Shown here: in pieces, positions 1,637-51,339 of the stretch
Numbering within the stretch: position 1 is the first letter of the stretch
Layout of the letters: each line of letters begins with the position of its first letter
Translations under genes and position numbers: made by a program
From: an uncultured Bdellovibrionales bacterium
Lineage (GTDB): Bacteria > Patescibacteriota > Minisyncoccia > Moranbacterales > GWC2-37-73
Assembly (NCBI GenBank): GCA_964484505.1
Contig: CAZAFB010000005.1
Location: forward strand, 7,427-71,426
Direction: 5' to 3'
DNA length: 64,000 nucleotides
The notes under the pieces: generated by a model
Databases searched by the model: none
Seen by the model: only the letters and a program-made list of their open reading frames with translations
Told to the model about the DNA's origin: nothing

Positions 1637-3004
1637 TCATGATTTTTTAGCCCTTTTAAGCTTTAGCGTGAAATGCGAACCGACACCTTCGATACTTTCT
1701 ACATTAATGTCACCTCCCATCTTACGCGCAAGTTCGCGGGAAATCCAAAGTCCCAAACCGGTACCGGAGATTCTACTGGTTTGATCAGTCTTGATGCGAT
1801 AAAATTTTTCAAAAAGATGCGCTACTTGCTCGGCAGACATGCCCAAACCGGAATCAGCTACAGTAAAATATACGAATTCATCATCGCTCTTACCCATGAG
1901 TTCAATTGTTCCTTTGGGCGTATATTTTATCGCATTACTTATGAGATTTATCGCGATTTGCCTCACCCGATCGGAATCAGCAAAAACAATTGGTAATTCC
2001 GGAAGCGACAGCTTAAGTTCCAAGCCTTTTTCCCTGACCAAAACTTGATGTTGCTCAGCAGCAGCTAAAGCGATATCTTTCACGGATATTTCACTAACAT
2101 TGATTGGAATTCTGTTTTGTTGTAGACGTGAGACCTCAAGTAAATCTTCTACCAATTCTCGCAGCCGTTTTGTAGAACTTCCTATCTGCTGAACATAATG
2201 CCCGATCTCTTCTTTTTTGTTTTCAGTCATTTCCTTTTCACTTAGGTCATCTTCCAATAATTCGACGTATCCTTGCATAGCTGTAAGCGGACTTTTTAGT
2301 TCATGACTGGCCATTGAAATAAAATCATCCTTCATGTGGTCAATTTCCTCAAGCTTAGTAGCCTTAATAGCGTATTTGAGAGTTCGAATATGATTGGCAA
2401 CCAAAAGCAAAACAACAAGAAGCGACAAAAGCGTCACCACATAAACTTTAGAAATTGCATCCTTAACGAATCTATCGTGAGCATCCAGCGACATTTGAAA
2501 AAGCAGGATTCCAACTTTTTTGCCATTTTTATCCTTAATTGACTTGCCAATATTCCAAAATCTGCCATTATCATCACTACCCAAATATGCCAAGGGTTTT
2601 TCCGCGTTCCAAATAAGAGACATGGCCATATTATTGCTTTTAGCCCCTATATCCTCAGATCTATTTGAGGCAGCAATCGCGTAAGTTCCATCTTCCTGAG
2701 TAGGCTTAAGAAAAACTATCGATTTCACTTCACTGTCTTTTTCAGATATTGATTTGAATTTTTCACTCACGCCAGCTATTTGCGCTTCATCCTCCGCCTC
2801 CTCCGATACTATTATTTGAGAAATATTACCACCAAGCAACCCTTTACTCTGCAATAATTGGTCTGTAACTCCTTGGAAATTATTGATGGCATAATAAGTG
2901 TTTCCAAAAAGAAGTGCCGTTATAACCACGATCAAAACCAGCGAATAAATAATTGCCGGATTTTTACGGATAAATTGAAAAGCGTTATTGATGATGTGCT
3001 TCAT
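1637..3004 (-). CDS. Sensor histidine kinase (membrane-bound, HisKA + HATPase_c)
   Basis: H-box SHELKSPLTAMQGY; N box NLISNAIKYT; G boxes DSGLGM and GTGLGLWIS; N-terminal transmembrane segment; no response regulator in window. Confidence 0.85.
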   Translation of the reverse strand: MKHIINNAFQFIRKNPAIIYSLVLIVVITALLFGNTYYAINNFQGVTDQLLQSKGLLGGNISQIIVSEEAEDEAQIAGVSEKFKSISEKDSEVKSIVFLKPTQEDGTYAIAASNRSEDIGAKSNNMAMSLIWNAEKPLAYLGSDDNGRFWNIGKSIKDKNGKKVGILLFQMSLDAHDRFVKDAISKVYVVTLLSLLVVLLLVANHIRTLKYAIKATKLEEIDHMKDDFISMASHELKSPLTAMQGYVELLEDDLSEKEMTENKKEEIGHYVQQIGSSTKRLRELVEDLLEVSRLQQNRIPINVSEISVKDIALAAAEQHQVLVREKGLELKLSLPELPIVFADSDRVRQIAINLISNAIKYTPKGTIELMGKSDDEFVYFTVADSGLGMSAEQVAHLFEKFYRIKTDQTSRISGTGLGLWISRELARKMGGDINVESIEGVGSHFTLKLKRAKKS

Positions 3005-4505
3005 CTTTTTGGTGACGATATGAGACTATGCCGATGAGCAGCAGTGCAACGCTTAGAAATACCGCCATAATAATAAGAGCTATTGAAAGATAAGCATTTT
3101 TTTTCTGTATCATTGGCGGAGCTGCTTTGCCAGAGATATTATCTCCCGTTGAAGCGACAACTGTTGCAGCCTGAGCGGTCTTAATAAAGCTAAGTGGTTG
3201 GCTCTTGGCTGTTATCTTTCCTGTGTTGTCAGTTACTGCAACATACACTTGATGTTCCCCGTCTTCCAAATTCTTGTCCAAATCATAGGACCAATTGCCA
3301 TCTGCGTCAGTTTTTACGGTAATTACAATCGGTGAATCACTATATACGTACAAGGTAACAAACATATTTGGCAACGCTTTTCCGTTGATACGCAAAGTCT
3401 TTTGCGATTGAACATCTTTCGATTGATCAGAATCGATAAATGAAACATTCTCCACCATGTAACGCCCATCCACTTCGCCGATTTCTTTCGGACTTTGAAA
3501 AACCACCTTATCCTCTTTGTTGCCATAAGATGATTTAAGCGGATTATATCCGGATTTCATTTCATCCCCATCAAGATAACCGTCCTGGTCAGAATCTGGA
3601 TTGTAAGGGTCAGTTCCCAAACGTTTTTCCTCATCATCGGATATTCCATCACCATCACTGTCTGCCGGAGCATTGTCGGCTGGCGCTTGTATCGATGCTC
3701 TTAAAGAATTTGCCGGCAAGGAAATTACAAAATGCACAGGGTTTGTTTCCAATGTTCCACCGCTATTCAAATAGGCGCGTGCAATCAACTCATAGTCACC
3801 ATTTGGCAAGTTGCTTGCAGGAAAGCTCAGCTTCCAAATTCCATCCTGTGCATAAACCGCCTTTTTGAGATATTTGGTTGCATCAGATCCTGCATTGGTC
3901 TGGCGATAAAAAAACTCTACCGATGTCGACCCTACTGCACGCACAGAAAACTGCACATTATCCCCGGTATATTTAGTGCTTTCAGTTGGTTCGATTATCA
4001 CGGGAGGAATATATTTAACCGTGTTTTGAGTGGTTGTTGAAACAGACGACGGATTGTTACTGCCAGAAACAGCGGTATTTGTCGCTATCGGAGTTGTCGT
4101 TGTTTGAACGATAGGGTTAAGTGTCGTATTGGCGGCAGAAGTAGTTGGGGTTGTTGTTGAAGTAGTTGTGCCCGTCACAGTACTACTGGCGGCAGCACTA
4201 TCATATGTAGTTGGTTTTATTGTTGTGGTAGTTGTCTGAACAGAGGTATTTGTACTTACTGGAGCGGCAGTTGGTAATGAAGTGGTCGTTGTAACAGGAG
4301 CCGTAACAGTACTGCCAGAAGTTGTATTTATTGTAGTAATTGGAAGAGTCTGCGCATCAACAAGATTAGCCATAATGTTCCGAATGAAGCGCTTGTCATC
4401 AAGCATAAGAAAACCTTCGTTTTTTGCGCTTAAATAACCACCTATCGCTATAGCCCCAAGAGAAATAAAAATCAGGATCAAGGGTATTATTTTTCTTTTA
4501 TCCAT
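2985..4505 (-). CDS. Membrane-anchored surface protein with Thr/Ser-rich linker, thrombospondin type 3-like Ca-binding repeats and Ig-like domain
   Basis: N-terminal TM segment; ~120 aa T/S-rich tract; DSDGDGISDDEE...DPYNPDSDQDGYLDGDE (DxDxDG repeats); C-terminal hydrophobic anchor; overlaps histidine-kinase start by 20 nt. Confidence 0.6.
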   Translation of the reverse strand: MDKRKIIPLILIFISLGAIAIGGYLSAKNEGFLMLDDKRFIRNIMANLVDAQTLPITTINTTSGSTVTAPVTTTTSLPTAAPVSTNTSVQTTTTTIKPTTYDSAAASSTVTGTTTSTTTPTTSAANTTLNPIVQTTTTPIATNTAVSGSNNPSSVSTTTQNTVKYIPPVIIEPTESTKYTGDNVQFSVRAVGSTSVEFFYRQTNAGSDATKYLKKAVYAQDGIWKLSFPASNLPNGDYELIARAYLNSGGTLETNPVHFVISLPANSLRASIQAPADNAPADSDGDGISDDEEKRLGTDPYNPDSDQDGYLDGDEMKSGYNPLKSSYGNKEDKVVFQSPKEIGEVDGRYMVENVSFIDSDQSKDVQSQKTLRINGKALPNMFVTLYVYSDSPIVITVKTDADGNWSYDLDKNLEDGEHQVYVAVTDNTGKITAKSQPLSFIKTAQAATVVASTGDNISGKAAPPMIQKKNAYLSIALIIMAVFLSVALLLIGIVSYRHQKDEAHHQ

Positions 4506-4569: not shown

Positions 4570-5706
4570 TCAACCGTGAATTACCACCGGCGTACCTATT
4601 TGAGCCCATTCATAAACTCTTTTTGCTGAACCAACCCCTAATCTGACACATCCGTGAGATACGGGAGTCCCCAGATGATTTGCTCCTTCTTTATATCCTC
4701 CGGGCCATTCAGGAAGTTCGTGAATGCCAAATTCCCCACTGGGAACCAAAGCCATCCAATATGGCATAAACAAAGAATATTTTTTTGACCAAGGTTTTTC
4801 AGCCTTATTACAAATAGCAAAAGTTCCTTCTTCTGTTTCCATTCCTCTCTTACCAGATGAAATCAGATACGCATCAAGAGCTTTGCCATCTTCAAAAATC
4901 ACCATTATTTGCTGCTTAAGATTTATGTCAATGTATTTACCACTTGTCAATTGAGGTTTGGTGTTTTCCTTGGCTTGCTGCAATTTCACTTGAGGATCAC
5001 GGTCCCATTTTTCTGAAGGCAACGTCTTTTTCGTTTCAAAAAAAGTTTCATATATCTGTCTGTATTCCTGACTCGCTTGCTTGGAATATTTTACATATAC
5101 CTTGATAAAATATTTTTCGCCTTCCGCCAAATCAACACGTGGCATCAAACGAATTTGTTGCTTTTCTTCATCGCGTGAATAGGCCAAATTATTTGCCGGA
5201 TCAACAACGAACTTCACATCCCATTTTTTATTAAGATTTTCAAAATTGGCAACTATGGGATTTTCCATATCCAAAGAAACATCTTTTTCTTTATTCAAGG
5301 GAAAAAATGATTTTACGGAAGGGCCGGGAGCGGTTTCAAAAAAGAGATCTTTCGTTGAATTTGTCATATAGGCGCTTCTTCCTTTGAGACTTATCTTGTA
5401 GGAACTTCCATAAGTCCAGAGTGATATGGGGATTATCGTCAAGCGCTTATTTTTATCATTCCAAAAAAAATTTACATCAGCTTTGGGCTCAATATTTATC
5501 GATTTTTGCGTAATTTCAGTCAGCATTGGCTGTGAAAAAATTATTTCCACAGCATCATCAGGATTTAAACTCCTGTCCTTCACTAAAAAAACATCTGCCG
5601 CAAAAATTTCCTGATATTTCAAAAAACAAAAAACACCACCTGCGATAATCGGAATAAGCAAGGCAATCAAAAAAATAATTTTTTTTCTTTTTCCAAAATA
5701 ATGCAT
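4570..5706 (-). CDS. L,D-transpeptidase (YkuD family) with N-terminal membrane anchor
   Basis: C-terminal catalytic motif SHGCVRL; N-terminal TM segment. Confidence 0.8.
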   Translation of the reverse strand: MHYFGKRKKIIFLIALLIPIIAGGVFCFLKYQEIFAADVFLVKDRSLNPDDAVEIIFSQPMLTEITQKSINIEPKADVNFFWNDKNKRLTIIPISLWTYGSSYKISLKGRSAYMTNSTKDLFFETAPGPSVKSFFPLNKEKDVSLDMENPIVANFENLNKKWDVKFVVDPANNLAYSRDEEKQQIRLMPRVDLAEGEKYFIKVYVKYSKQASQEYRQIYETFFETKKTLPSEKWDRDPQVKLQQAKENTKPQLTSGKYIDINLKQQIMVIFEDGKALDAYLISSGKRGMETEEGTFAICNKAEKPWSKKYSLFMPYWMALVPSGEFGIHELPEWPGGYKEGANHLGTPVSHGCVRLGVGSAKRVYEWAQIGTPVVIHG

Positions 5707-23100: not shown

Positions 23101-26100
23101 AATAGGTGTTGGTATTGATACCACGAGATACGTAGAGATAACCATCATGACCATCAATCATATTGGCGCCAGCTCCTGCAGTTGCGGGCAATGCTCCGAG
23201 CACAGTCCAAGTAGTGTTGGAAATTTGATAACGACAAGTAGTCGCATTTGTGGCACCTCGTAAAAGATAGATATAACCGTCTTTATATACAATCTTTCCG
23301 CCATCACCCGTAAGACATGAAGCATTGACGGGAAGTGCCGCAGACCAACGAGAACCTGCTGCCGCAGTCGTATCATAACGCCACCAGGTGTTAGCACCGT
23401 TTCCGGCGGTTAAATATATATATTGAGATCCGTCATAAGTCATTGAGGAGCCAACCAGTGTTTTAGCCGGCGGACGGTCCGTGATTATTTCTTCCCAAGT
23501 ATTGGTATTAGTGAGGTATCTGAAAAAATATGGGGCTTTGGAATCTCCGGTACGTGCGGTCCTAATATTTCCTGGTATATAATAAACGGCATTTTCATCT
23601 TCATTGAAAACCATACTACTTCCTTGATATAAACCTACCGGCAATTTCGAGAGTTCCGTAAATGTTCCCGAATCCGTATCATAACGCCCAAAAACATTAT
23701 CATATGAACCACGTGCCATATAAATCGAATCACTTTTGTCCGCAGCTATAACCGATCCATTACCATAGAGGAAATAACTGGTTCCGGCAGTTGTCGACGG
23801 TCCAAAAAATGCTCGCTGCGGCAATTCCCAAGTATTTTCAGCAATATTAAAGCGATAAAAATTCGTTGTCGTGCCACCGCGCGTTGCATAGATGTAACCA
23901 TTGTAAACAACCATGGATGCACCATAGGATATGGAAGCAGGAACATCAGGCATCACATACCAGGTAGCAGACTCAATATCGTAGCGATAAAATTTTTGCC
24001 TACCTTTTCCCGCAAACACATAGATGGAATTGGCAGTGTTGTCAAAAACGATAGTGCCACCATCATAGATTCCTTCGGGAGCCATAGGCAGCGAAGTCCA
24101 AGAGTTGGCATGCTCACCCCGAGATAAATCGTCCCCGATGGAATACTTGGCAAAATAGGGATACAAGTTTCCCTGAATCACATAAATATTATTGCGCTCA
24201 TCATAGATAGCATCACCACCAATATATGTCCTTTGTCCATCTGCCGTATTTGGGTTTCCAAACTCCGCATTCGGGAGCTGCGTCCAAGAGGGTGTACATG
24301 ATGTTTGATTATTGCACGTGTCATATTTGTAGAAAGCATCGTCATTTCCAGGCATCGCATAAATATAGCGCGAACCATCATAGGAAAGATTCGAGCCATA
24401 ATCGAAATTCTTCGGCGCGCTGTCTATTGTGCTCCAAACATTATTCTCTATGTCATACATCCAAAAAGTTGAAGTTGCTACACCTCGAGCAGCATATAGA
24501 TAACCGGCAGGACCTGCCACCAAAAATCCGCCATTATTGACTGCCAAAGGAGCGGCAGCAACGGTTGCGGGAGATGTGGTCCATGTATCAGTTTCTATTT
24601 CATACCTATGAAACGTGGTTCCGTTAGCGCCACCGAAAGTATAGAGACAATGATTACTATTGCCCCTACATGAACTTAATGCCAATTCTCCCCCAGCAGC
24701 AATATTTCCCAGAGCAAGTGAGAGCCGTGCTTGATTCCAAAAACCATTTGATGAATTCAGTCTTACGGAATCAGTTACACTAGTGGCATTAACATCAGTA
24801 AGCGTGCCTGCGGCAAAATCTGCAGTTGAAGTTTTTTGCTCATCAAGATAAGGGGAGACACCGCTATAGACATAAGTAAATGCATCCCAGGTAGAAGAAG
24901 AAACATTGCCGTTTACATCTTTGGTTTTAACGCGCAGATAGTATGTTCCTGTTTGCAGGGCCAAATTTACCACATAAGAACTGGCGGTTTGGTATGATCC
25001 TTGCGTTACTGGGTCTGCGCCATCGTCAGTACCAAAATACACATAATAACCATCAATACCACTGCCGGAGTCGGCAGCACCACTCCAAGAAAAATAAGGA
25101 TGTTCATGCGGATATGATTGCCCTGAGGTCAGCGCTTGTCCACCTACTTGCTGCGATCTTGCATCAACCGCGGTCGGATTTGTAGGCGCATCGTCCTCAC
25201 TGTTATAAGAAATTGTGTAATCAGATACTGTAGGCGTGTAAAGGCCATCAGACGTGTTAAGCGTAACCTTTACTTGCACATATCTGTTGACTGGCGAAGC
25301 GATTGTCGTTCCGGAAATAACTTGCCAAGAAGACCAGTTTTCGTTATCAGAACTAGTACGGGTTTCATAGGTAATGCTGGTATTGGTCGGCGTATTGTCC
25401 GCTTTATTGAAAGAAACCCAGCTTTGCACATTGGATAAGTCTAGTGATTGACTGACATAAGTACCACTAGCAACAAAATTGGTAGCGCCGGAAGTGTAAC
25501 TCCACACGTCAGCAAGACCTTGCCCTGTTGTGGCAAAAAATGAAGTGCCACCGGCATATTCTATAGATGCTCCATTATATGGTCCGCGGCCGAAGGTATA
25601 TTGTTGATTATTCGGCAGCTTGCGCCAAGTGTCCGTGGCAATGGTATATTCCCAAGTGTCATCTTTATAAAGTCCCGCCAGAGCATATACTTTGCCATTG
25701 GCATAAGTCATATCAGTACCATAATATTGTGCAAAAGGCGTTGAAGCAATCTTACTCCAAACACCTCCACTATATTTCAAGAAGGTTGTTTCTCCATCTC
25801 CCAACATCACATACACATCAGTTCCATCAGTAACAATACGTGCTCCAATACTAGCATAATAGGTAACACCACTCACCACCATGTTGGCAAGGGCGGTCCA
25901 ACCGCCAGCATCAGTGTAACGATAAAAATTGGCAGTACCATTACCGCGAATGGCATAAATTGAATTATCGGATGCGCAAGCAAGCCCTGCACCATTACTT
26001 GCCGTAGCCGGGAAAGGCTGTGTGGTCAATGTCGTCCAAGCGTTTTCAGCGTAACGATAGAATGTTGTCGTATTGCCGCCTAGAAGAGCATACACATAAC

Positions 26101-27969: not shown

Positions 27970-29757
27970 CTATTGTTTCTTCCTGGCCGCTTTCACTCGA
28001 TCCGTTTCCTTGAGGAATTGTTTGCGAAGACGCACGGATTGTGGCGTAACTTCCAAATATTCATCCTCATTCATAATTTCCAAACCGCGTTCAATGGATA
28101 GTTCCCATGGCGGTGTCAGCTGAATTGCATCATCACTGCCTGAAGCACGCATGTTGGTCAGCTGCTTACCCTTCAATGGATTGACGGTCATTTCTTCTCC
28201 CTTGGCCACATTACCGATAACCTGACCCTCATATACTTCCGTAGCCGCCGGAATATACAGCACACCACGTTCCTGCAAATTCGCCAAAGAAAATCCAAGT
28301 GCTTTGCCGGTGCCATTGGAAATCATCGAGCCCACTTCGCGACGCTTGATTTCTCCTACATACGGCCTAAAACCGATCACACGTGAAGACAAAATTCCTT
28401 CACCTTTTGTATCAACAACAAACTGGCCACGATAACCAAGCAGACCGCGTGTCGGCGCTTCAAACAAAAGACGTGTCTGAGAGCCGTGAATTTGCATGTC
28501 TGTCATGATTCCCTTGCGTTTGCCCAACGTTTCAATAACCGTTCCTGAAAGTTCGCTTGGTACATCCACAGTCACCTCTTCAAACGGCTCGGATTTTACT
28601 CCGTCAATTTCTTTGATAATTACTTGCGGCTGCGAAACTTGAATTTCATATCCTTCGCGACGCATGTTTTCCAAAAGTACGGCAATATGCAATTCGCCGC
28701 GACCGAAGACCATGTAATACTCACTGGAAGAAAAATCAATTTTGAGTCCGACGTTTACTTCCAATTCTTTTTCCAATCTTTCCCTGATTTGTTTGTTGGT
28801 GACAAATTTTCCTTCCTTTCCGGCAAACGGTGAGTCGTTAACCAAAAATCGCAAGGAGATTGTCGGCTCATCAATCGTAATCGCTGGAAGCGCTTCTTGC
28901 TCGGCATTTTCACAAATAGTCTCCCCGATATCGATTTTAGGAAAACCGGCTATCATCACAATATCGCCAGCATAAGCTTCTGCAACCTCTTCGCGTTCGG
29001 TGCCTTTGAAAGTATATAACTTGGTTACACGTGAAGTTTCCACGCCTCCATCCATTTTTTTCAAAGTAAGCGTTTGTCCTGATTTTATGGTACCTTCGTG
29101 AATTCTGCCTACCGCCAAGCGTCCCAAAAAGTTATCATAACCCAAGTTGAAAGGCTGCATCCGCAGCGGCGCGTCTTTATTAGCCTTGGCCGGATGCACT
29201 TTAAACAAAATCATATCAAGCAAAGGAGTGAGGTCCTTGGAATCATCGTCCATATGTTCTTTAGCAATTCCTTCGCGACCGATTGCATACAAAGTTGTAA
29301 AATCAAGCTGTTCATCGTTTGCACCCAAGTCTAAGAATAATTCATATACTTGTTCTTGCACCACATCAGGCTGCGCCGCCGGTTTATCGATTTTGTTGAT
29401 CACCACGATCGGTTTAAGCCCAAGTTCCAATGATTTTTTAAGCACGAAACGCGTCTGCGGCATCGGACCTTCTTGCGCGTCAACAACCAAAATCACGCTG
29501 TCGATCGAGCGCAAGACACGTTCTACTTCGGAGCCGAAGTCCGCATGACCGGGCGTGTCCACGATGTTGATTTTGGTATCGCGATAGAAAATCGAAGTGT
29601 TTTTGGCATAAATCGTAATGCCGCGCTCCTGCTCGAGCGCGTTGTTGTCCATGCTGACGCCTTCGCCCACCATGCCAGTTTGGCGCATGATAGCGTCGGT
29701 AAGTGTTGTTTTCCCATGATCCACATGGGCGATAATCGCAATGTTTCTAATCTCCAT
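27970..29757 (-). CDS. typA: Translational GTPase TypA/BipA
   Basis: MEIRNIAIIAHVDHGKTTLTD G1 motif; DTPGHADF; NKIDK; EF-G-like domain order over 595 aa. Confidence 0.9.
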   Translation of the reverse strand: MEIRNIAIIAHVDHGKTTLTDAIMRQTGMVGEGVSMDNNALEQERGITIYAKNTSIFYRDTKINIVDTPGHADFGSEVERVLRSIDSVILVVDAQEGPMPQTRFVLKKSLELGLKPIVVINKIDKPAAQPDVVQEQVYELFLDLGANDEQLDFTTLYAIGREGIAKEHMDDDSKDLTPLLDMILFKVHPAKANKDAPLRMQPFNLGYDNFLGRLAVGRIHEGTIKSGQTLTLKKMDGGVETSRVTKLYTFKGTEREEVAEAYAGDIVMIAGFPKIDIGETICENAEQEALPAITIDEPTISLRFLVNDSPFAGKEGKFVTNKQIRERLEKELEVNVGLKIDFSSSEYYMVFGRGELHIAVLLENMRREGYEIQVSQPQVIIKEIDGVKSEPFEEVTVDVPSELSGTVIETLGKRKGIMTDMQIHGSQTRLLFEAPTRGLLGYRGQFVVDTKGEGILSSRVIGFRPYVGEIKRREVGSMISNGTGKALGFSLANLQERGVLYIPAATEVYEGQVIGNVAKGEEMTVNPLKGKQLTNMRASGSDDAIQLTPPWELSIERGLEIMNEDEYLEVTPQSVRLRKQFLKETDRVKAARKKQ

Positions 29758-29760
29758 ATC

Positions 29761-29923
29761 CCTACGAATTACGAATTTATACGAATGTACGAATCATTTT
29801 TCATGCATTTGTAATCAATTCATAACTAAGCTTAAATTTTTTATCATCTCACAACTTAATTTGAAACATTTATTCTTTTTGTCTTCCTTTCGTACATTCG
29901 TATTTTGTTCGTAATTCGTAGAG
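29761..29923. promoter_or_regulatory. Pair of 33-bp inverted ACGAAT/ATTCGT hexamer arrays flanking an ~90-bp spacer, immediately upstream of typA start
   Basis: cctacgaattacgaatttatacgaatgtacgaatc (29761-29795) versus its reverse complement tttcgtacattcgtattttgttcgtaattcgtagag (29888-29923). Confidence 0.5.
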
Positions 29924-30077
29924 AAAACAAAAGACTGCCTTGTGGGCAGCAAATGTCCTAAGCCCTTGAAATATAGCAGGAAAAATACTATATGTCAATA
30001 TTTTAAAAGCCGCTCCTTTATTAAAGCAGAGCGGCATATAAAACTTTTGGGAAAGCTTGAAGCACATTATGACACGA

Positions 30078-32617: not shown

Positions 32618-33832
32618 TTACTTGAGATATTTTCTCCCTCGAAGTTCGGCGGGTAAATACTCCTGTTCACTGGAATCTTCAATTGGCGTGTATTTGTAAG
32701 CTTTTCCGTAGCCAAGTTGTTCCATAAGTTTCGTGGGGGCATTGCGAAGATGCATGGGCACGGGCAAGTTGCCATATTGCTCCACGTCTTTTCTTGCCGC
32801 GCCATAGGCGAAATATGCCGCCACATTTTTCTTGGCGCGGGCAAGATAAATCACCAATTGCGCCAGGTGCACATTACATTCGGGCATTCCCAATTTGTGA
32901 CAAGCTTCGAAAACATTATTAGCCAGCACTAAAGCGAAATTATCCGCTACACCTACATCTTCCGCCGCAAAGCGAAGCAAACGTCGTGCGACATAAATCG
33001 GGTCCTCCCCACCTTCCAGCATACGCGCCAGCCAATAAAGTGAAGCATCCGCATCGCCACCGCGCATCGATTTGTGCAGTGCAGAAATTATATTGTAGTG
33101 TTCTTCACCTGTTTTGTCGTAGTAGAGATGTGATTTTTGCAGCACCTGCCTGATCAATTCGTGCGTTATGTTTGTATCTTGATCAGTTGCCGCTTCCAGA
33201 GTGTTAAGCGCCATGCGCGCATCGCCATTTGCCAACATGGAAATTTCCTTGATAACTTTGTCTTCTATTTTTATTTTCCTGTCACCAAGTCCTTTTTCTT
33301 TGTCGCTCAGCGCATGCCTAAGAATTTTTTCAATATTTTCCGCTTCTAATTTTTTCAACACAAAGACTCGCGTCCTGGAAACCAAGGCGCTGTTCACTTC
33401 AAAGCTGGGGTTTTCCGTGGTTGCCCCGATCAAAGTAACCAAGCCGTGTTCCACATGCGGCAAAAAAGCGTCTTGCTGCGCCTTGTTCCAGCGATGGATC
33501 TCATCAATAAACAAAATGGTTTTCTTTTTCTGCCATTCGTTTTCTTGCGCCTCAGCGATAATCTTACGCAGTTCTTTGATGCCGCTGGTTACTGCGCTTA
33601 TTTGCAAAAACTCCGCTTTTGTTTCTTTGGCGATGATGTGAGCCAGCGTTGTTTTGCCGCTTCCTGGAGGCCCCCAAAGAATCATCGAAGGCACATTATC
33701 CTGTTCGATCGCTTTTCGCAAAAACGAAACTTCCCCGACCAAATCATCTTGCCCAAAAAAATCTTCCAGCCTCTCCGGCCGCATCCGATCGGCAAGGGGA
33801 ATATTAGCGTTTGTTTTATTATCCTTATCCAT
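32618..33832 (-). CDS. rarA: Replication-associated recombination protein A (AAA+ ATPase RarA/MgsA)
   Basis: Walker A GPPGSGKTTLA; LIGATTENPSFEVNSALVSR; C-terminal MgsA helical domain. Confidence 0.9.
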   Translation of the reverse strand: MDKDNKTNANIPLADRMRPERLEDFFGQDDLVGEVSFLRKAIEQDNVPSMILWGPPGSGKTTLAHIIAKETKAEFLQISAVTSGIKELRKIIAEAQENEWQKKKTILFIDEIHRWNKAQQDAFLPHVEHGLVTLIGATTENPSFEVNSALVSRTRVFVLKKLEAENIEKILRHALSDKEKGLGDRKIKIEDKVIKEISMLANGDARMALNTLEAATDQDTNITHELIRQVLQKSHLYYDKTGEEHYNIISALHKSMRGGDADASLYWLARMLEGGEDPIYVARRLLRFAAEDVGVADNFALVLANNVFEACHKLGMPECNVHLAQLVIYLARAKKNVAAYFAYGAARKDVEQYGNLPVPMHLRNAPTKLMEQLGYGKAYKYTPIEDSSEQEYLPAELRGRKYLK

Positions 33833-33907: not shown

Positions 33908-33942
33908 TATTCGCACATTCGTATAAATTCGTATTTCGTAGG
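33908..33942. promoter_or_regulatory. ATTCGT hexamer array (single copy) about 75 nt upstream of rarA start
   Basis: tattcgcacattcgtataaattcgtatttcgtagg, near-identical to the reverse complement of 29761-29795; followed by TTATAAT. Confidence 0.4.
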
Positions 33943-33988
33943 CATGTTATAATACAACCATATTAACAATTACTACGCAAACAAAATC

Positions 33989-37619: not shown

Positions 37620-38228
37620 TTATTCATCGGCAAGCTGACTATAGTAATAATCCACGTCTTGTTCCCATTTTTTTACGCTTGCTGTCGGATGAGTACAATT
37701 ATATCCACACTTCCACACAACCATTTTTTTGGGAGTATCCAAATTTTCTTCATTAACCATTTTGTCTATACGGCTGGCAATTGCATCAACAGCTTCTTTG
37801 GGATTATCAAAACAAGTGTGTCCACCACTACCCATTTTTTCCGATTTCATGCGAAAGCCCCAATAATTATAACAGTCTTCTCCGGCAAGCACCGGCTTTC
37901 TTTTGCCCCAATTGCTTTCTTTTTTGGCAATGCCCACAATAAAAGCAGCGACTTCACGGTCATAGGAAGCAATATATGGAGTCATTTGTTCAATCGGATA
38001 TCCCTTAACCATTTCCTTAATTTCCTTTTCTAGAGCAGCATTCTTTTGGGGAGCTTCCTGCACGATTAGTGTCGGCATATTTATTTCACGCCTAGCATGC
38101 TGAGAAACAACCAAAAACGTCTCCAAAAAGACAATGGCGATGATAAGCCCCAAAATGCGGGCACGGGACGGACTGATATTTCCCAAATCAAGTCCCAAAT
38201 ATATATTTTTTTTGCTTTTTTTAGCCAT
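37620..38228 (-). CDS. Membrane-anchored GH73-like peptidoglycan hydrolase, paralog 3
   Basis: IAKKESNWGK, DCYNYWGFR, GGHTCF, MVVWKCG, DVDYY motifs; N-terminal TM segment. Confidence 0.5.
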   Translation of the reverse strand: MAKKSKKNIYLGLDLGNISPSRARILGLIIAIVFLETFLVVSQHARREINMPTLIVQEAPQKNAALEKEIKEMVKGYPIEQMTPYIASYDREVAAFIVGIAKKESNWGKRKPVLAGEDCYNYWGFRMKSEKMGSGGHTCFDNPKEAVDAIASRIDKMVNEENLDTPKKMVVWKCGYNCTHPTASVKKWEQDVDYYYSQLADE

Positions 38229-45442: not shown

Positions 45443-46699
45443 TTATTTCTTTGCAGCTTCAACCCCCGCAACAAATCCTGTTGCCCAACACATTTGAAGA
45501 TTATAACCGCCGGTCGGACCATCGACATCGATGATTTCTCCGGCAAAGAAAAGGTTTTTGATAATTTTTGAGCGCATGGTTTTGGAATCTATCTCTTTCG
45601 TAGACACGCCGCCACCAGTAACCATCGCCCGTTCAAAACCGAAAAGTTTTTCCACGGTAAGCTCCAAGCTCTTAAATAAATTTACCAGAGCGTGTCTTTC
45701 TTGCTTGCTTATCTTGGCAGCATGTTTTTCCAGATCAAGTCCGCTATGTTTCAACAAAAATTCCAAAAGTTTCGGCGAAAGCAAATCAGCAAGACAATTA
45801 GCTAGCTTTTTGGAAGCATTTTTTTCAAAATCCTTGCGCAAAATTTCATCCAATTGTTCAAATGCAAGATAAGGCTTAAAGTCTATCTTTATTTTTACCT
45901 CTCCGCTTTCCAATATAGGTCTTATGCTGCGGCTTAAATTAAGCACCAACGGACCGCTCACACCTAAATGAGTGAAAAGCATGTCACCTTCGGCAGCAGT
46001 TTGTTTTTTGCCACTCTGCCAAACGCTCATGGCGCAGCTATGCACACTTGTTCCTGCAAGTTCCTCCACCCATTTTTCTCTTGTCTCAATTGGCACCAGA
46101 AGAGGCTGCGGCTCAATGATGCTGTGGCCAAATTTTTTTGCCCATTCATATCCCTGCCCCGCGCTTCCCGTACTTGGATATGATTTACCACCAAAGGCGA
46201 ATATATAATTATGTGCAGCTATTTCCCTTTTTTTGTTGAGAATAATTTTTTTGATTTCTCCACTTTCAAATTCTATTTCTTCCACTGTTGATTTTAGCAA
46301 AAAAGTAACATTATTTTCCTTGAGCATATTTTCCAGAACACCAAGCACGTCTTTGCCTTGATCACTCACCGGAAAAACGCGATTGTCTTTTTCGACTTTT
46401 GTTCTGATGCCGGCCTTTTCCAAAAAAGCGATCACTTTTTCAGGACCGAAGGCGGCAAGGGAGGAATATAAAAAGCGTCCATTTTTGCCATATTTTTTGA
46501 CCAATTCGTTCAAATCTTTCTCATTTTGGGTGAAATTACAGCGACCGTTTCCTGCCATCAGTAACTTGATTCCCAAGCGATCGTTTTTTTCAATCAGCGC
46601 AACGCGCGCGCCTTTTTTGGCAGCGCAAATAGCGGCCATCATCCCCGATGGGCCGCCGCCAATCACTGCCACGTCAAATTGAATGTCTTTATCATACAT
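45443..46699 (-). CDS. FAD-dependent oxidoreductase, HI0933/BaiN (YhiN) family
   Basis: DVAVIGGGPSGMMAA Rossmann motif; C-terminal GGYNLQMCWATG typical of the HI0933 family. Confidence 0.8.
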   Translation of the reverse strand: MYDKDIQFDVAVIGGGPSGMMAAICAAKKGARVALIEKNDRLGIKLLMAGNGRCNFTQNEKDLNELVKKYGKNGRFLYSSLAAFGPEKVIAFLEKAGIRTKVEKDNRVFPVSDQGKDVLGVLENMLKENNVTFLLKSTVEEIEFESGEIKKIILNKKREIAAHNYIFAFGGKSYPSTGSAGQGYEWAKKFGHSIIEPQPLLVPIETREKWVEELAGTSVHSCAMSVWQSGKKQTAAEGDMLFTHLGVSGPLVLNLSRSIRPILESGEVKIKIDFKPYLAFEQLDEILRKDFEKNASKKLANCLADLLSPKLLEFLLKHSGLDLEKHAAKISKQERHALVNLFKSLELTVEKLFGFERAMVTGGGVSTKEIDSKTMRSKIIKNLFFAGEIIDVDGPTGGYNLQMCWATGFVAGVEAAKK

Positions 46700-46789
46700 A
46701 ACGACTCATTCTAGCATCTATAAAAATAAAAATCAAGCCTACCATCCGAAAATTTAGCCTTCGAAGAAATTCCCTTCTGCCAATAAGCG

Positions 46790-46826
46790 CTATTCGTACT
46801 TTCGTATTTATTCGTAATTTGTAGAG
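46790..46826. promoter_or_regulatory. ATTCGT hexamer array copy (ctattcgtactttcgtatttattcgtaatttgtagag) upstream of the oxidoreductase gene
   Basis: Matches 29888-29923; overlaps the last codons (TNYE*) of the 46808-48694 gene. Confidence 0.4.
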
Positions 46827-48694
46827 ATTTTCTCGAACACAAAATACCGCACATCGCGTTCTTTGTCTTCTTTGTCTTCGCGGAAATAACGCGTGATTAT
46901 ATATTTAGAAGTAGTATTATCACCCTCTGTATTTTCCATATCATCATTTTTAGCGACCAGAAGCTCTTGCATAACTTTTTTCATGCGTTCGAAATCGTTT
47001 TGCATGTCGAATTTGAGCACGAAAGATTCTTGTCCGAGCAAGGGCGCAATATCCTCATGCGTCCAACATTGATTCTTCAAATGTTCTTCGTCAATCGGCT
47101 CATCTTTGCCTTCATTGCGATAAGCATATTTTGGATTTTTCTCATTATCCAGACGAATCGTGAAAAGCGGCTCGCCTGATTCATGATAATCACTGATAAA
47201 ACCATCGATTACATGTCCATAATCCTCAACATAGGAACAACCGACTGGTATTCTTACCGAAACCGCCGCAATCAATACATGCTCGCGCGCTTCTTCCAAA
47301 ATCGCCCTTTTCATCAGTTCATTTCCAACGCCAATGCTGCGAGCATCCGCATCAACATTGAATGATCCCCAATAGTATGTGCTTTGATCAAGCTTTTTCA
47401 AACGTAGTTCTGCAACAATTCTTTTCTTATACCGTATAGAATAAAACTTGTGTTGTTTCGGATTTTTCAGACCATCGTCAAGTCCGGCCATCGCCGCATC
47501 TTTCAATGGGTCGCCGGCATAATTTCTTTCAGGGATATCGCGGTGCTCTTTCATGTCTTCCTCATCCGGAAAATTCTCCCCGAAGTCCTTGATTGCAAAA
47601 TCAACGTCTTTGATGTATTCCAAGTCTATTTTTACATCACTTTCTTTAGCAGCTTTCAACGCCGCCGCGAGCAGAATAATATCGGTTTTGGATTTTTCAA
47701 GGTCGGAAAGTAGCGCTTCAACCAATTGCTGCTTCTCTTTTTTATTATATTTCCCGATTACGCTCATCTTAAACGCTTTGGAAAAATTAACAATAATTGC
47801 ACGTACTTTTTCCAATAACTGCCCACGTAAATTCAATTGCTCTCCCTCAATTCCTAGTGCTTTATTAAGTGTTTCATTTTCCTGATCAGCCAAACCAACG
47901 ATTTCGGCAATTTTTTGAAAAACCAACTCGCCCTTTTCTTTTTGTAAATCTTCCTGAAAGCGCTCACCTATTTTTAAAATATTTTCACCAATTATTGCAT
48001 CTATTTCCAAGACTAAAAAGGATTTAAGACCATTACCGCCAAATTGATGTGTAAATTTTTTGAGTTTTGTTATATTTTCCACGCTACGCGAGTTGAGAAA
48101 ATCGAAGAAATTTTTACGGATATTTGGCGAGTAACCCTGAATATCAACACCAAAATCTTTTTTTAGCAAGTGTTGCATATAGGCATTATCAGCATCAAAA
48201 AACCAGTTCTCATTTTTCGGCACCAAAATCTCTTCCGCGTCTTCCTCATATTGGTCCGCAATGCCCTGCTGATATGGCGCATCCAATATTTCTTTGATGT
48301 GAAGTTGCACTAAATAATTCCCGAATCTGTTTTTTTCTTTTCTCAATGCATTGAATATTTCAACGCTTACATCATCGTCAAATTCATATTGATCATACTC
48401 GTCGGTTTCCGCATCTTCATATTCATGATGATAATTTTTCAATGGCACAAAAATATCTTTCCTGCCCTCCGCATCTTCATCGAGTTCAACAGTAAGATGG
48501 ATGGGATTTTCCAACATATATCCGGATAATTTGTCCAAAATGACATGAATCTCCTCTTTTGATGGTGTGTAATATAAAACCTGTTCCAACAGATCTTCAG
48601 CATCCTCACTCGTGAGACTTTCTTTTTTGAGCAACTCGTAATATTCAGGATTTTGAGAATTTTCTATTGAATTGTTTGAGATTTCCTTTTTCAT
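46808..48694 (-). CDS. Large acidic hypothetical protein with possible C-terminal GNAT-like acetyltransferase fold
   Basis: Start trimmed to MKKEISNN (ATG 48692-48694) to avoid overlap with upstream ATPase; C-terminal RIVAELRL…SIGVGNELMKRAILEEA resembles GNAT motif A. Confidence 0.45.
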   Translation of the reverse strand: MKKEISNNSIENSQNPEYYELLKKESLTSEDAEDLLEQVLYYTPSKEEIHVILDKLSGYMLENPIHLTVELDEDAEGRKDIFVPLKNYHHEYEDAETDEYDQYEFDDDVSVEIFNALRKEKNRFGNYLVQLHIKEILDAPYQQGIADQYEEDAEEILVPKNENWFFDADNAYMQHLLKKDFGVDIQGYSPNIRKNFFDFLNSRSVENITKLKKFTHQFGGNGLKSFLVLEIDAIIGENILKIGERFQEDLQKEKGELVFQKIAEIVGLADQENETLNKALGIEGEQLNLRGQLLEKVRAIIVNFSKAFKMSVIGKYNKKEKQQLVEALLSDLEKSKTDIILLAAALKAAKESDVKIDLEYIKDVDFAIKDFGENFPDEEDMKEHRDIPERNYAGDPLKDAAMAGLDDGLKNPKQHKFYSIRYKKRIVAELRLKKLDQSTYYWGSFNVDADARSIGVGNELMKRAILEEAREHVLIAAVSVRIPVGCSYVEDYGHVIDGFISDYHESGEPLFTIRLDNEKNPKYAYRNEGKDEPIDEEHLKNQCWTHEDIAPLLGQESFVLKFDMQNDFERMKKVMQELLVAKNDDMENTEGDNTTSKYIITRYFREDKEDKERDVRYFVFEKISTNYE

Positions 48695-48704
48695 ATATTT
48701 TGAT

Positions 48705-49856
48705 TTACAGCCCCACAAATTCTTCAAAGTTTTCCTTGTTGACCAAGGTGACATCACTGCCAGGATAGGCTTCCAGAAATGCTTTGGGTTTTTTGAATTT
48801 GTCTTTTTTCCATTTAAACTCAAATCCCTCCATTTTTCCACCCTCTTCTTCAATATAATCAATTTCTTGTTTTTGCATCGTGCGCCAAAAATACGTCAAT
48901 TTGTCATGCTCATTGTTGCCATTGAATTTCATGCGCTCACTAAGCATGAAGTTTTCCCAAAGCGCACCCGCATCGGTTCGCAGGTCAAGCGGATTAAAAT
49001 TATTAATCAAGGCGTTGCGCACACCTGTGTCATAGAAATAAATCTTGCGCATTTTCTTGAGCTCGTTGCGCAAGTTTCGCGAAAGCGGCCGCAGGCGAAA
49101 AATAATAAAAGCCTGCTCCAAAATTCTAATGTAATTTTCAACTGTGTTTTTGCTGATTTTCAAAAGATTCGACAATTCATTGTATGAAACTTCATTGCCG
49201 ACTTGCAAAGCCAAAGCTTGCAACAAATTGTCCAGCAAATCAGAATGCTTTATGCCTTGATATTCCAAAACATCCTTATATAGATAACTGTGAGTTATTT
49301 CTTTCAATCTGTTTTTGGCATCCTCCCCGGCATCAATAACTTCGGGATATGCTCCAAATATCATTTGTCTCTCCAAAATTCTGCGCATTTCAAGACGGTC
49401 ATATTTTTGTGACAACTCTTCAAGAGAAAAAGGATGCAAAAAAAATTCATATTTTCTTCCCGTGAGCGGTTCTATAATTTTATTTGACAAATCAAATGAT
49501 GATGATCCCGTCGCAATGATTTGTATTTCAGGATAATTATCAACCAAAAGCTTTAGCGTGAGTCCAATGTTTTCAATTCTTTGCGCTTCATCAATAACTA
49601 CAAAATCTTTTTGACCAAGATATTCTTTGAGTGCCGTCGAAGTTTTGTTTGTGAGTGCCTGACGCACATCCAAATCATCACTACTCAGATACTTTGTGTC
49701 ACGCTCTTTGGCATATTTTTCCAAAATTGTCTTTGCCAAAGTGGTTTTGCCAACCTGGCGTGGGCCATAGATTATGATTATTTTCCCTTTAAAAAGGCGT
49801 TTTTCAATGTTTTTTTGGATTGTTCTTTCAAAAATCATATGATTTTGGTCAATCAA
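48705..49856 (-). CDS. AAA+ ATPase, AAA_14 + DUF4143 architecture
   Basis: Walker A GPRQVGKTT; Walker B VVIDEAQ; C-terminal DUF4143-like region; 10-nt gap to downstream gene. Confidence 0.8.
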   Translation of the reverse strand: MIDQNHMIFERTIQKNIEKRLFKGKIIIIYGPRQVGKTTLAKTILEKYAKERDTKYLSSDDLDVRQALTNKTSTALKEYLGQKDFVVIDEAQRIENIGLTLKLLVDNYPEIQIIATGSSSFDLSNKIIEPLTGRKYEFFLHPFSLEELSQKYDRLEMRRILERQMIFGAYPEVIDAGEDAKNRLKEITHSYLYKDVLEYQGIKHSDLLDNLLQALALQVGNEVSYNELSNLLKISKNTVENYIRILEQAFIIFRLRPLSRNLRNELKKMRKIYFYDTGVRNALINNFNPLDLRTDAGALWENFMLSERMKFNGNNEHDKLTYFWRTMQKQEIDYIEEEGGKMEGFEFKWKKDKFKKPKAFLEAYPGSDVTLVNKENFEEFVGL

Positions 49857-50350: not shown

Positions 50351-50437
50351 ACAAAAACTTTCTGTCTGAATTTACATCTTGTGATATAAACTCGGAAAAA
50401 AGTGGGAGCGAGCGACCAAGCAACGCTCCCGAAACCA

Positions 50438-51320: not shown

Positions 51321-51339
51321 TACTATAATTTTTTTTGCC

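Follow-up and report, generated by a model that had tools for sequence, protein, structure and literature searches.

A family of inverted TACGAAT heptad arrays in CPR bacteria and Bacteroidota, a probable miniature mobile element of a new kind

Introduction

To our knowledge, almost nothing is known about the non-coding DNA of the candidate phyla radiation (CPR) bacteria. A literature search gave no paper linking them with MITE or REP elements, nor any paper containing tandem TACGAAT strings. Small selfish ORFs enclosed by the stem of an inverted flank, or inserted co-directionally and without a promoter of their own in highly conserved and highly expressed transcription units, are familiar from the 23S rRNA intervening sequences with a small ORF and from the free-standing homing-endonuclease genes found in operon gaps. 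Excision from the RNA and cleavage of the empty site are features of these known systems.

Other close counterparts are short dispersed repeats. MITEs with the insertion sequences they come from, such as the Correia/CREE elements in Neisseria (PMC2229807, PMC3184786), are short, non-coding, intergenic and present in many copies per genome, with terminal inverted repeats around a variable interior. They are co-transcribed with neighbor genes as hairpins, have longer relatives with the same ends that carry a gene, and differ in presence or absence among relatives. REPINs (REP doublets) and their RAYT transposases (PMC3116915, PMC3337134) provide inverted, hairpin-forming doublets of an extragenic repeat of ~30 nt, with frequent remnant-like solo copies, long persistence in genomes, a GTAG/CTAC tetranucleotide at the boundary and one small associated protein gene between repeats, in this case a HUH/Y1 transposase. 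Each REP is a GC-rich palindrome, species-specific, and favors the 3′ ends of genes. Finally, the TAACTGA heptamer direct repeats of Beggiatoaceae, Cyanobacteria and Bacteroidetes (PMC4679880) are found in 2–6 intergenic copies, often a few nucleotides upstream of start codons at the Shine-Dalgarno position. Their neighbor genes have no functional pattern (ribosomal-protein operons are included), their distribution across phyla is patchy and no function has been assigned. They are strictly tandem and nearly always have one orientation to the gene, inverted in only 1 of 170 sets (PMC4679880). Here we describe a foldback of heptad arrays next to typA that resembles all of these in part, and that is probably a new type of miniature mobile element.

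Heptad arrays in the window

The stretch of DNA analyzed (64 kb, hereafter the window) contains four arrays of 33–35 nt, each with four TACGAAT heptads, at three loci, while shuffled sequences had none. The arrays had been noticed, at these same places, by an initial annotation made from the sequence, and the observation is confirmed: with three mismatches allowed at most, the 33-nt pattern has three matches in the window and none in 100 shuffles, and the double heptamer with at most one mismatch has four against 0.59 expected. However, that annotation took the hexamer ACGAAT as the unit and counted five copies at four loci. The hexamer alone is not enriched in the window (40 observed, 39.99 expected), the repeated unit being the heptamer, and a looser cluster scan of the window found no fifth array. 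Nor are these direct repeats with a periodicity of ~10–11 bp, since the heptads are spaced by 7, 10–11 and 8 nt and only the second and third fit. The arm is made of direct heptads and lacks an internal palindrome. A tRNA/tmRNA search found nothing, the window had no match in Rfam 15 at the gathering score, and a permissive Rfam search with two elements gave only weak generic hairpin (miRNA-precursor) matches, with E ~0.06 or higher.

Two of the arrays face each other upstream of typA/bipA (27970..29757, minus strand, 595 aa), whose start codon is abutted by the foldback. Arm A1 (29762..29794, plus strand) reads CTACGAATTACGAATttaTACGAATgTACGAAT on the plus strand. On the typA strand it is the 3′ arm, ATTCGTAC...ATTCGTAG, and ends 4 nt (not 5, as first reported) before the ATG at 29757. 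Arm A2 (29888..29921, minus strand) is the 5′ arm on the typA strand, CTACGAATTACGAACaaaaTACGAATgTACGAAA, with an inner spacer of 4 nt. Between them lies an AT-rich loop (29795..29887, minus strand) that had been put, roughly correctly, at ~90 nt and is exactly 93 nt long. On the typA strand of this loop neither a sigma70-like promoter nor an ORF was predicted. Two public contigs terminate inside arm A1.

The remaining arrays are solitary and each has two mismatches. A3 (33909..33941, minus strand) is located in the divergent gap between rarA (32618..33832, minus strand) and ORF79/obg (33989.., plus strand), where it abuts the extended -10 of the opposite-strand gene. A partner arm for A3 was looked for and none was detected. 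The earlier statement was that all downstream genes are on the minus strand, but the CTAC outer end of A3 faces the plus-strand ORF. A4 (46792..46824, minus strand) is 92 nt upstream of the HI0933-like oxidoreductase gene (45443..46699, minus strand), and 56–88 nt upstream of the -35 hexamer of a promoter-like site of this gene (46736..46708). Its CTAC end overlaps the last five codons and the stop (46808–46810) of another ORF (46808..48862, minus strand). The identities first given to typA, rarA and the HI0933-like gene agree with Pfam. No inverted repeats in the whole window are longer than the pairings of A1 with A3 and of A1 with A4. Repeats of this kind mislead ORF callers, and ORFs are then extended through the arrays.

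The typA leader

A sigma70-like promoter, TTGACA-17-TATATT (29970..29998, minus strand; 11 of 12 matches, with a TG extension), precedes the typA element and is conserved in relatives. It is followed by a leader hairpin, CTGCC-N5-GGCAG with a T-run (29925..29950, minus strand), which is kept upstream of typA in nearly all relatives whether the foldback is present or absent, and arm A2 begins 2–3 nt past this T-run. As the promoter is conserved upstream of the element, the foldback falls inside the predicted 5′ UTR of typA, of ~205 nt. The fold has a predicted energy of -55.2 kcal/mol (z = -7.4 vs. shuffles), so that, with the promoter in this position, the early suggestion of a long 5′-UTR hairpin at typA is structurally sound. 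The inverted pair is predicted to fold much as had been proposed, although not into one continuous stem of 33 bp but into 17+15 bp separated by an internal loop, where one variable spacer lies opposite the other. Once transcribed, the element would form a stem of ~33 bp, the 3′ strand of which stops 4 nt short of the AUG. At this distance it could affect the access of the ribosome or allow cutting by a double-strand RNase, and expression of typA may be influenced.

Gain, loss and replacement are all seen at this slot. Some relatives have the element, others have it single-armed or interrupted, and in others still it is absent or foldbacks built on other words have taken its place. The loop is 69–78% identical in the closest relatives (L129 and L131) and unalignable in more distant ones. 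The contrast with the arms is marked: mean arm identity at typA among relatives is 0.90, whereas the loops reach 0.46 and the four-fold degenerate sites of typA 0.39, and the arms remain ~90% identical in relatives whose synonymous sites are saturated. This identity fits a function at the level of the host at least as well as a selfish element.

Distribution and geometry of the family

A motif scan found the composite array in at least 119 genome stretches, mostly of Patescibacteria/CPR plus Bacteroidota (64 CPR and 36 Bacteroidota among the matches listed, going by record title). We counted 231 arrays, vs. 0 in reversed-sequence controls, and a single match among the 2.9 million viral contigs of IMG/VR. 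A phage origin was considered and rejected, given that one match and phage/plasmid BLAST searches that gave only chance matches or pure heptamer tandems.

The arrays are organized as 54 F-loop-R pairs and 118 solo arrays, and F-then-R pairs exceed R-then-F pairs by 40:1. Loops are mostly of 5–60 nt (full range 5 to 190 nt). The outer ends of the foldbacks are CTAC/GTAG and are found 0–12 nt from stop or start codons. In the CPR loci, the outer ends of pairs have a median distance of 9 nt to an ORF boundary, and solo arrays one of 6.5 nt at the outer end and 77 nt at the inner end; only 7 of 85 units in these loci are intragenic, against ~86% coding DNA. The pairs are mostly set between co-directional genes (39, with 4 divergent and 4 convergent), and in co-directional operons they span the gap, ~4 nt from the stop codon and ~6 nt from the start codon. 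Arrays are found in either orientation relative to transcription, and stop codons are abutted as often as start codons.

The heptad cores are 86–100% conserved and the 3–5-nt spacer is random. The arms of pairs are 87% complementary, with facing spacers that are not. In a G-U wobble strand test the arm mismatches numbered 17 on the sense and 25 on the antisense strand. With no G-U bias towards the sense strand, there is nothing here to indicate that an RNA hairpin is under selection. The genes directly adjoining arrays are 35, all different and all housekeeping, with rplQ, ssb, ychF, rpsC, rplD, rpmE, rbfA, ruvC, recR, gyrA, nifU and typA among the neighbors. Gaps of ribosomal-protein, ATP-synthase, str and secretion-system operons are occupied. 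In one spc operon, arrays are found at four successive junctions, all solo and with a single orientation, and these do not look like decayed pairs.

GxxExxY genes between the arrays

A search for genes between F...R arrays at 0.4–4 kb gave only two cases, and one of them led to the GxxExxY genes (PF13366/TIGR04256). In L054, L060, L063 and L069, a gene of this family has an F array on one side and an R array on the other. Of seven contexts fetched by protein homology alone, six showed this arrangement too (L208, L209, L210, L211, L222 and L227/L229), and in the seventh, L216, the arrays are degenerate. There are thus at least 10 loci at which a GxxExxY nuclease gene lies between these four-heptad ends, and the TACGAAT foldbacks that enclose them occur both in CPR and in Bacteroidota. 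The enclosed gene has ~130 codons, is promoter-less and lies co-directionally in short gaps of conserved operons, the slots rpsG|fusA and atpD|atpC being occupied in several lineages.

A second GxxExxY clade (~32% identical) is flanked by arrays of a different word, ACACAGAA/CACAGAG, as seen in L008, L233, L235, Bernardetia and Bacteroides finegoldii, whose protein of this clade is WP_032839887. In ~1.6 Mb of fetched DNA these arrays were located almost only beside genes of the second clade. The two clades are thus specifically paired with two words. No GxxExxY gene or remnant was found in the window or in 80 typA loci, loops included.

The proteins match PF13366 with E values of 1e-24 to 1e-30, and TIGR04256 also. 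The literature entry for the function of PF13366 is "Unknown". Residues D74, E84 and K86 are invariant in 36 sequences, and the predicted model (pLDDT 91) has a PD-(D/E)XK fold that matches Cas4 SSO0001, lambda exonuclease and the archaeal Hjc-type Holliday-junction resolvase ST1444. On this modeling, GxxExxY is predicted to be a minimal PD-(D/E)XK nuclease with an intact D..ExK site. We know of no PD-(D/E)XK protein of 130 residues among the transposase types. The initial annotation had proposed recognition of the four repeats by a multimeric protein. Recognition by a protein is plausible judging from the arrays, but the best candidate would be the element's own GxxExxY nuclease and not a gene regulator, and we infer that this protein binds or cuts the arrays.

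Comparative evidence for possible mobility

The homology among copies goes beyond the arms. Loop sequences from unrelated loci, and from different genomes, are homologous too (78% identity vs. 62% for shuffled loops; 79% in a pair of Nomurabacteria loops), and all elements of the Nomurabacteria share two distinct arm types, spacers and flanks included. The conserved flanks (tct...aga) are themselves inverted, extending the inverted repeat, and are subfamily-specific. It is whole elements, then, that are homologous at unrelated loci, a pattern which, like all the evidence for mobility, comes from comparison and suggests that they may move.

No direct repeat that could be a target-site duplication flanks the pairs. 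The TA within CTAC/GTAG belongs to the heptad, and a CTAG/TA target like that of IS630 was dropped because the flanks beyond CTAC are subfamily-specific. All-against-all clustering of the 914 ORFs around arrays revealed no recurrent transposase-like family; the recurrence of pilB/pilC near arrays is due to synteny among related genomes. No transposase-like or RAYT (HUH/Y1) gene was found flanked by arrays, the flanked gene being the PF13366 PD-(D/E)XK nuclease, and the four-helix-bundle (23S rRNA IVS) proteins were not flanked by arrays either.

Origin of the typA foldback and comparison with known elements

We consider it probable that the typA pair is a gene-less, MITE-like derivative of a nuclease-encoding element, rather than the operator of a regulon. 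It would be one copy of a dispersed foldback-repeat family in which each arm consists of four TACGAAT heptads, the arms face across a variable loop with CTAC...GTAG at the outer ends, and full-length relatives carry the GxxExxY gene in the loop. Short gene-less foldbacks, as at typA, and solo arrays such as A3 and A4 would most likely be non-autonomous or decayed derivatives, related to the full-length elements as MITEs are to insertion sequences, and the heptads would most likely be recognition sites of the GxxExxY nuclease.

The likeness to MITEs extends to all the properties given above, with lengths of 70–260 bp, the 54 F-loop-R pairs and the changing occupancy of the typA slot. In contrast to MITEs, no target-site duplication was found around the TACGAAT foldbacks, their arms are four direct heptads instead of a simple inverted repeat, the gene of the full-length form codes for a 130-aa PD-(D/E)XK nuclease and not for a transposase, DDE or of another known type, different phyla have kept the arm sequence, and foldbacks persist at orthologous sites past synonymous saturation. 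With REPINs they share the inverted doublet, the solo copies, the persistence, the single small gene and the boundary tetranucleotide, which in foldbacks is found only at the outer end of the doublet. However, the foldback arm is a direct-repeat array and not a palindrome, the associated gene is of the PD-(D/E)XK type, the arm is common to CPR classes and Bacteroidota, and starts and stops are abutted alike. The TAACTGA repeats are similar in their heptamer unit, intergenic position, neighbor genes and patchy occurrence, but the foldbacks have the 7 / 10–11 / 8 spacing, both orientations, inverted pairing as a rule and a partner protein family. As for 23S rRNA intervening sequences and homing-endonuclease genes, the enclosed small ORF, its co-directional insertion and the filling of the same slot (rpsG|fusA, atpD|atpC) in several lineages are all matched here. 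The differences are that gene-less foldbacks far outnumber gene-carrying ones, and that RNA excision and homing cleavage of empty sites set the known systems apart.

Alternative explanations

The strong conservation of the arms could also mean that the arrays are a cis-element of the host, bound by a conserved DNA-binding protein of the host, such as a cooperative binder of 7–8-bp repeats, which would mark or insulate the boundaries of genes. Selection would then keep the arrays where they are, and GxxExxY genes would merely settle inside them by preference. The excess of arm identity over four-fold degenerate sites at the typA slot, the conserved cores with random spacers, the placement independent of orientation, as expected for duplex recognition, and the solo arrays at the four spc-operon junctions of one genome speak in its favor. 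Nevertheless, we find it unlikely, as homology of loops and flanks at unrelated loci is unexpected for independent binding sites, loops can be as short as 5 or as long as 190 nt, at the typA slot the element has been lost or has given way to other-word foldbacks, and the word of the second GxxExxY clade is scarcely found elsewhere. Selection could act instead on the transcribed hairpin, through the spacing between stop and start, an RNase III site or the tuning of translation, leaving the heptads as incidental. Pairs that fill the stop-to-start gap of co-directional operons, 87% complementary arms, the stability of the typA fold and its place within the predicted 5′ UTR would all be in keeping with this. 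A structure of this kind leaves the cross-phylum conservation of the 33-nt sequence unexplained, though, and the missing G-U bias (17 vs. 25), the non-complementary facing spacers, the absence of an Rfam family match and the solo arrays, twice as frequent as pairs, make a role at the RNA level quite improbable.

The explanation originally put forward, a multimeric-regulator operator of the OmpR/PhoB type for a regulon with typA, rarA and the HI0933-like gene, has behind it four direct repeats upstream of three minus-strand genes in the window, with heptads 2 and 3 ~10 bp apart. We regard it as very unlikely, because the position relative to the promoter differs at each of the three loci, stops are abutted as often as starts and in both orientations, the adjoining housekeeping genes are unrelated to each other, and in many relatives the array is not conserved upstream of typA. 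Equally improbable would be heptamer repeats born from replication slippage, with no protein partner, like the cyanobacterial short tandem heptamers. It is true that there are pure (TTACGAA)x4 tandems in Nostoc and Bernardetia plasmids and that no class of long simple repeats is more common in bacteria than heptamers (PMC4679880), but different phyla share the fixed 7 / 10–11 / 8 spacing, the sharp boundary at CTAC and the inverted pairing, copy number lacks the variation that slippage predicts, and the arrays are specifically linked to GxxExxY genes. Least credible to us is a portable promoter, in which the array would drive leaderless or short-leader mRNAs. The CTAC end is indeed 0–15 nt from a start codon in 35 of 143 arrays and the Moranbacteria-type loops contain a TTGAAT-17-TAAATT match, yet this end equally abuts stop codons and terminators, the conserved asymmetric loops of that type point against the flanking genes in five of seven cases, the heptads are unlike -10 or -35 elements, and typA and the oxidoreductase gene have separate sigma70-like promoters.

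Wider reading

A derivation of the typA foldback from a nuclease-encoding element would matter in several ways. The 33-nt composite is common to many CPR classes and Bacteroidota, and at an orthologous site with randomized synonymous positions it is still ~90% identical. The link with GxxExxY would be the first testable role for a large orphan family of PD-(D/E)XK proteins. The design, a minimal nuclease with arrays of a short word, would be outside current classifications of insertion sequences. In addition, the foldbacks break assemblies and give essential genes, typA among them, leaders with long hairpins.

More tentatively, and as a possibility that we would not yet favor, GxxExxY proteins in general might be the mobilizing or homing nucleases of an unrecognized class of tiny elements, delimited by inverted arrays of 7–9-nt words that are specific to each clade, with the gene-less foldbacks as their MITEs. 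If this were true, essential operons in CPR, Bacteroidota and other phyla would be receiving tiny elements in their gaps, co-directionally with the genes, and some heptamer arrays, among them those of the TAACTGA type and the short tandem heptamers of cyanobacteria, may have been left by the same system. The words that come under this reading are TACGAAT, ACACAGAA/CACAGAGG and possibly CGCGGAT and ACGGATT.

Heptamer arrays in the window

The arrays of the window are built of the heptamer TACGAAT, repeated four times with start-to-start distances of 7, 10–11 and 8 nt over a total of 33–35 nt (composite consensus CTACGAAT-TACGAAT-nnn-TACGAAT-g-TACGAAT). On re-inspection of the sequence, the array region of the initial annotation reads as it had been described, with arrays at 29762-29794 (+ strand; A1), 29888-29921 (−; A2), 33909-33941 (−; A3) and 46792-46824 (−; A4). 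The count of five copies at four loci has to be lowered to four copies at three loci, because a cluster scan of the window revealed no fifth array. The 33-nt composite gave three ungapped matches in the window (none in shuffles) and the double heptamer four versus 0.59 expected, and the bare hexamer ACGAAT was not enriched (40 found, 39.99 expected). The window lies within a metagenome contig of 99 kb (JGI 3300022666), and its proteins are closest to those of Moraniibacteriota and Parcubacteria MAGs.

A1 and A2 are inverted, forming a foldback whose outer end in A1 lies 4 nt from the ATG of typA (27970..29757, −). On the typA strand the RNA fold of this region reached −55.2 kcal/mol, versus −28 ± 3.7 for shuffled sequences (z = −7.4). 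Toward typA, the upstream gene's terminator (about 30010-30040) is followed by a sigma70-like promoter (TTGACA-17-TATATT, 29998..29970, −), a short hairpin with a T-run (CTGCC-N5-GGCAG, 29950..29925, −), arm A2, a loop of 93 nt, arm A1 and GGAT-ATG. Nearly all relatives keep the promoter and, ca. 20 nt later, the short hairpin before typA, whether or not they have the foldback (e.g., loci L127, L137, L140 and L163). Judging from sequence, this segment (29925-29998, −) looks like a typA leader or attenuator that is distinct from the upstream gene's terminator. In some relatives the ATG comes directly after the short hairpin, so that transcription must read through it, and the foldback is therefore predicted to be part of the typA 5' UTR, giving a leader of roughly 205 nt with a stem of roughly 33 bp that ends 4 nt before the AUG. 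Public assemblies made independently from this organism (Logan contigs L003 and L004, locus position 1-36) both stop inside A1, ca. 35 nt upstream of typA; the array repeat or hairpin breaks short-read assemblies.

The two solo arrays are placed differently. A3 is located in a divergent gap, and its CTAC end directly adjoins an extended −10 (TGTTATAAT, 33948-33956, +) of the plus strand ORF79/obg genes. A4 runs across the stop codon of the preceding ORF (46808..48862, a real gene that terminates within the array as ...STNYE*), and 56 nt further downstream comes the −35 of a promoter match for the HI0933-like gene. This match (TTGATT-17-TAGAAT, 46708-46736, −) ends 8 nt before the ATG, i.e., the transcript would be near-leaderless. 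The position of the array relative to the promoter is thus different at all three loci.

Distribution and geometry of the arrays

An exact-pattern scan of species-representative genomes found the composite array in at least 119 genome stretches. Among the matches listed, and with taxa taken from record titles, 64 were Patescibacteria (candidate phyla radiation, CPR), 36 Bacteroidota and 19 were assigned to neither; the CPR groups among them were Nomura-, Moran-, Doudna-, Falkow-, Harrison-, Uhr-, Yonath- and Wolfe-bacteria, Saccharibacteria and Parcubacteria. Viral contigs gave one match. Conservation extended to heptad 1 and to the CTAC boundary, although the search pattern did not demand them. 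A tolerant scan retrieved 231 arrays, versus none in reversed-sequence controls; 54 pairs and 118 solo arrays were counted. Neighboring arrays were arranged with CTAC...GTAG outside (F-then-R) 40 times and R-then-F only once, with F-R loops mostly of 5–60 nt.

At CPR-labelled loci crude ORF calls contained no more than 7 of 85 units, although coding sequence makes up ca. 86% of the DNA there. The ends of pairs were a median of 9 nt from an ORF boundary; in solo arrays this distance was 6.5 nt for the CTAC end versus 77 nt for the other. Stop and start codons were equally frequent as the adjoining boundary, and the genes around pairs were co-directional in 39 cases, divergent in four and convergent in four. 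The 35 genes that start within 15 nt of an array were all different (rplQ, ssb, ychF, rpsC, rplD, rpmE, rbfA, ruvC, recR, gyrA, nifU and typA, among others). In a Harrisonbacteria spc operon solo arrays occupy four junctions, each reading TAG-AG-CTAC...GTACGAAT-A-rich-ATG, and the same operon carries a second foldback family with the word GAAAATT. The F arm is free of stops in all frames, so ORF callers run genes through the arrays, as in three ORFs of locus L049 (6380..6661, 5415..5642 and 2270..3193) that acquire spurious N-termini, e.g., MPNLYEST... on rpmC.

The initial annotation had suggested the site of a multimeric regulator with a regulon. The variable distance between array and promoter at the three loci, the unrelated neighbors and the equal placement at stops and starts rule out such an operator. 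A directional promoter is ruled out by the geometry; the sole asymmetric loop type with a promoter-like match opposes the flanking genes in five of seven cases.

A predicted nuclease gene enclosed by the arrays

Clustering of the ORFs around the arrays detected no transposase. It did detect a small family between F and R arrays in two Bacteroidota MAGs, one Flavobacteriales MAG and one Parcubacteria MAG, with the layout upstream stop, F array, 6–15 nt, ATG, ca. 130 codons, stop, 3–9 nt, R array, 3–9 nt, next ATG. The enclosed proteins are GxxExxY (TIGR04256, PF13366 PDDEXK_3), minimal PD-(D/E)XK nucleases of unknown function described as having “multiple transfers, mixed clades” (PMC3424549). 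Contexts were also fetched for homologs from a protein search alone, which removes selection for arrays. TACGAAT-type arrays were found on both sides of the gene in six of these seven contexts (rpsG/fusA twice, TraC-like/VirB4-like twice, the rplE-rpsH region, LemA/HtpX and one other) and were degenerate in the seventh; the gene was co-directional with its neighbors in all. The D...ExK motif is invariant, and the protein model (pLDDT 91) has structural matches to Cas4, lambda exonuclease, tRNA-splicing endonuclease and an archaeal Holliday-junction resolvase.

A second GxxExxY clade, ca. 32% identical, is flanked by inverted ACACAGAA arrays in atpD/atpC gaps of three CPR lineages, and by CACAGAGA / CACAGAGG arrays in Bernardetia and Bacteroides finegoldii. 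Over all the DNA fetched, arrays of these words were almost confined to those loci. Single examples in Treponema, Fusobacteria, Gemmatirosa and Persicobacter have further words. As the words are clade-specific, the heptads would most likely be recognized by the GxxExxY nuclease, the leading candidate for this role. In the searchable literature we found no paper that ties GxxExxY to repeats, reports the TACGAAT tandem or describes MITE- or REP-like elements of CPR.

In Komeilibacteria (L227/L229, 240-880) two complete foldbacks in direct orientation flank the gene, and the repeated unit begins at its last two codons (TACTAA), which suggests that a unit of gene and foldback was duplicated or recombined. 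In the Bacteroidetes MAG JADKFA01 (L035 3429-3631, L054 1263-1467) the 33-nt composite is contained in tandem units of 60–90 nt, together with the heptamers TACGCGA and TTCGCTA, and a GxxExxY gene adjoins.

Turnover and nature of the element

The heptad cores are conserved at 86–100%, the spacer of 3–5 nt is essentially random and conservation falls to background immediately beyond CTAC. Genomes carry variants of their own: in one Nomurabacteria MAG all elements share a single set of two distinct arm types, spacers and flanks included, and in several Moranbacteria genomes a loop of roughly 42 nt recurs at unrelated loci. Therefore, the copies are related by duplication of whole elements and are not independently evolved binding sites.

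Relatives with TypA 75–90% identical have, just upstream of typA, the same foldback, a single arm or no element; in some, the arm is interrupted by a 20-nt GC palindrome, or the foldback is of the TACAAAT type (every CG changed to CA/TG) or of other words (AAAGTCCAT or ACTAAAT). Retained elements are at the identical position after the T-run. Identity averaged 0.90 in the arms, versus 0.39 at four-fold degenerate typA sites (saturated) and 0.46 in the loops, indicating that the arms are strongly constrained or continually homogenized. Among the arm mismatches G-U was not overrepresented on the sense strand (17 sense versus 25 antisense); an RNA hairpin is therefore not visibly what is constrained. 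The alternative of the initial annotation, a long 5'-UTR hairpin at typA, is structurally sound, with a stable fold and a conserved promoter upstream.

The most economical reading of these sequences is a putative mobile element. The four-heptad arrays would be its ends, the full form bearing the nuclease gene; the far commoner gene-less foldbacks, that of typA included, would be non-autonomous derivatives, and the solo arrays, A3 and A4 among them, its remnants. That several phyla share the arm would be due to horizontal transfer of the element together with its cognate protein. A search of the window and of 80 typA loci found no GxxExxY gene. Since stop and start codons stand at the foot of one stem, insertion into operons would be harmless, which fits the geometry. 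A host-level role may also exist, given that near-perfect arms have long persisted at the orthologous typA site and that the solo arrays of the spc operon are oriented. The chance is substantial that this putative element is a new class of mobile element and the first functional lead for PF13366.

The element would work like a MITE/insertion-sequence pair, but we found no target-site duplication and it lacks a DDE enzyme, or like a REPIN/RAYT pair, but without a palindromic REP unit or HUH enzyme. With the TAACTGA repeats (PMC4679880) it has in common a heptamer unit, the location of part of its arrays at start codons that lack Shine-Dalgarno, occurrence within ribosomal-protein operons and a patchy distribution over phyla; inverted pairing, orientation independence and an identified partner gene set it apart.

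Other observations

Tiny GC-rich palindromes (CCTGCCTGCCGGTAGGCAAG, CCGCCAGCTGGCGG) inside heptad arrays (L131 2470-2490, L142 about 2395-2410, L150 upstream of typA) suggest a second, even smaller class of inserted palindromes nested in the foldbacks. Foldbacks of the same architecture and other words (AAAGTCCAT, ACTAAAT, TACAAAA, GAAAATT) fill similar intergenic slots (L049 4560-4680, 7090-7200), sometimes that of typA itself (L133/L134/L175, L156, L125/L126/L132/L157/L158). Pure (TTACGAA)x4 tandems are present in plasmids of Nostoc flagelliforme (L205 301-332) and Bernardetia, Cytophagales (L206 298-330, 385-425), in the latter one of them ca. 60 nt from (CTGATAA)x5, the TAACTGA repeat of PMC4679880.

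Downstream of typA, the window has a giant Kelch/fibronectin-type ORF (2533 aa, 20102-27703, −) that is split as 450 + 2077 aa in contigs of the same population (L002/L004), a strain-level frameshift or stop. At 50219-51357 an upstream region with a hairpin terminator and a strong AGGAGG ribosome-binding site occurs in three tandem copies, which would indicate tandem small paralogous genes; the organism therefore uses Shine-Dalgarno at some genes, unlike typA. Several direct repeats (44–116 nt, 66–89% identity) between 7918-9181 and 37704-38014 probably indicate paralogous gene segments ca. 29 kb apart.
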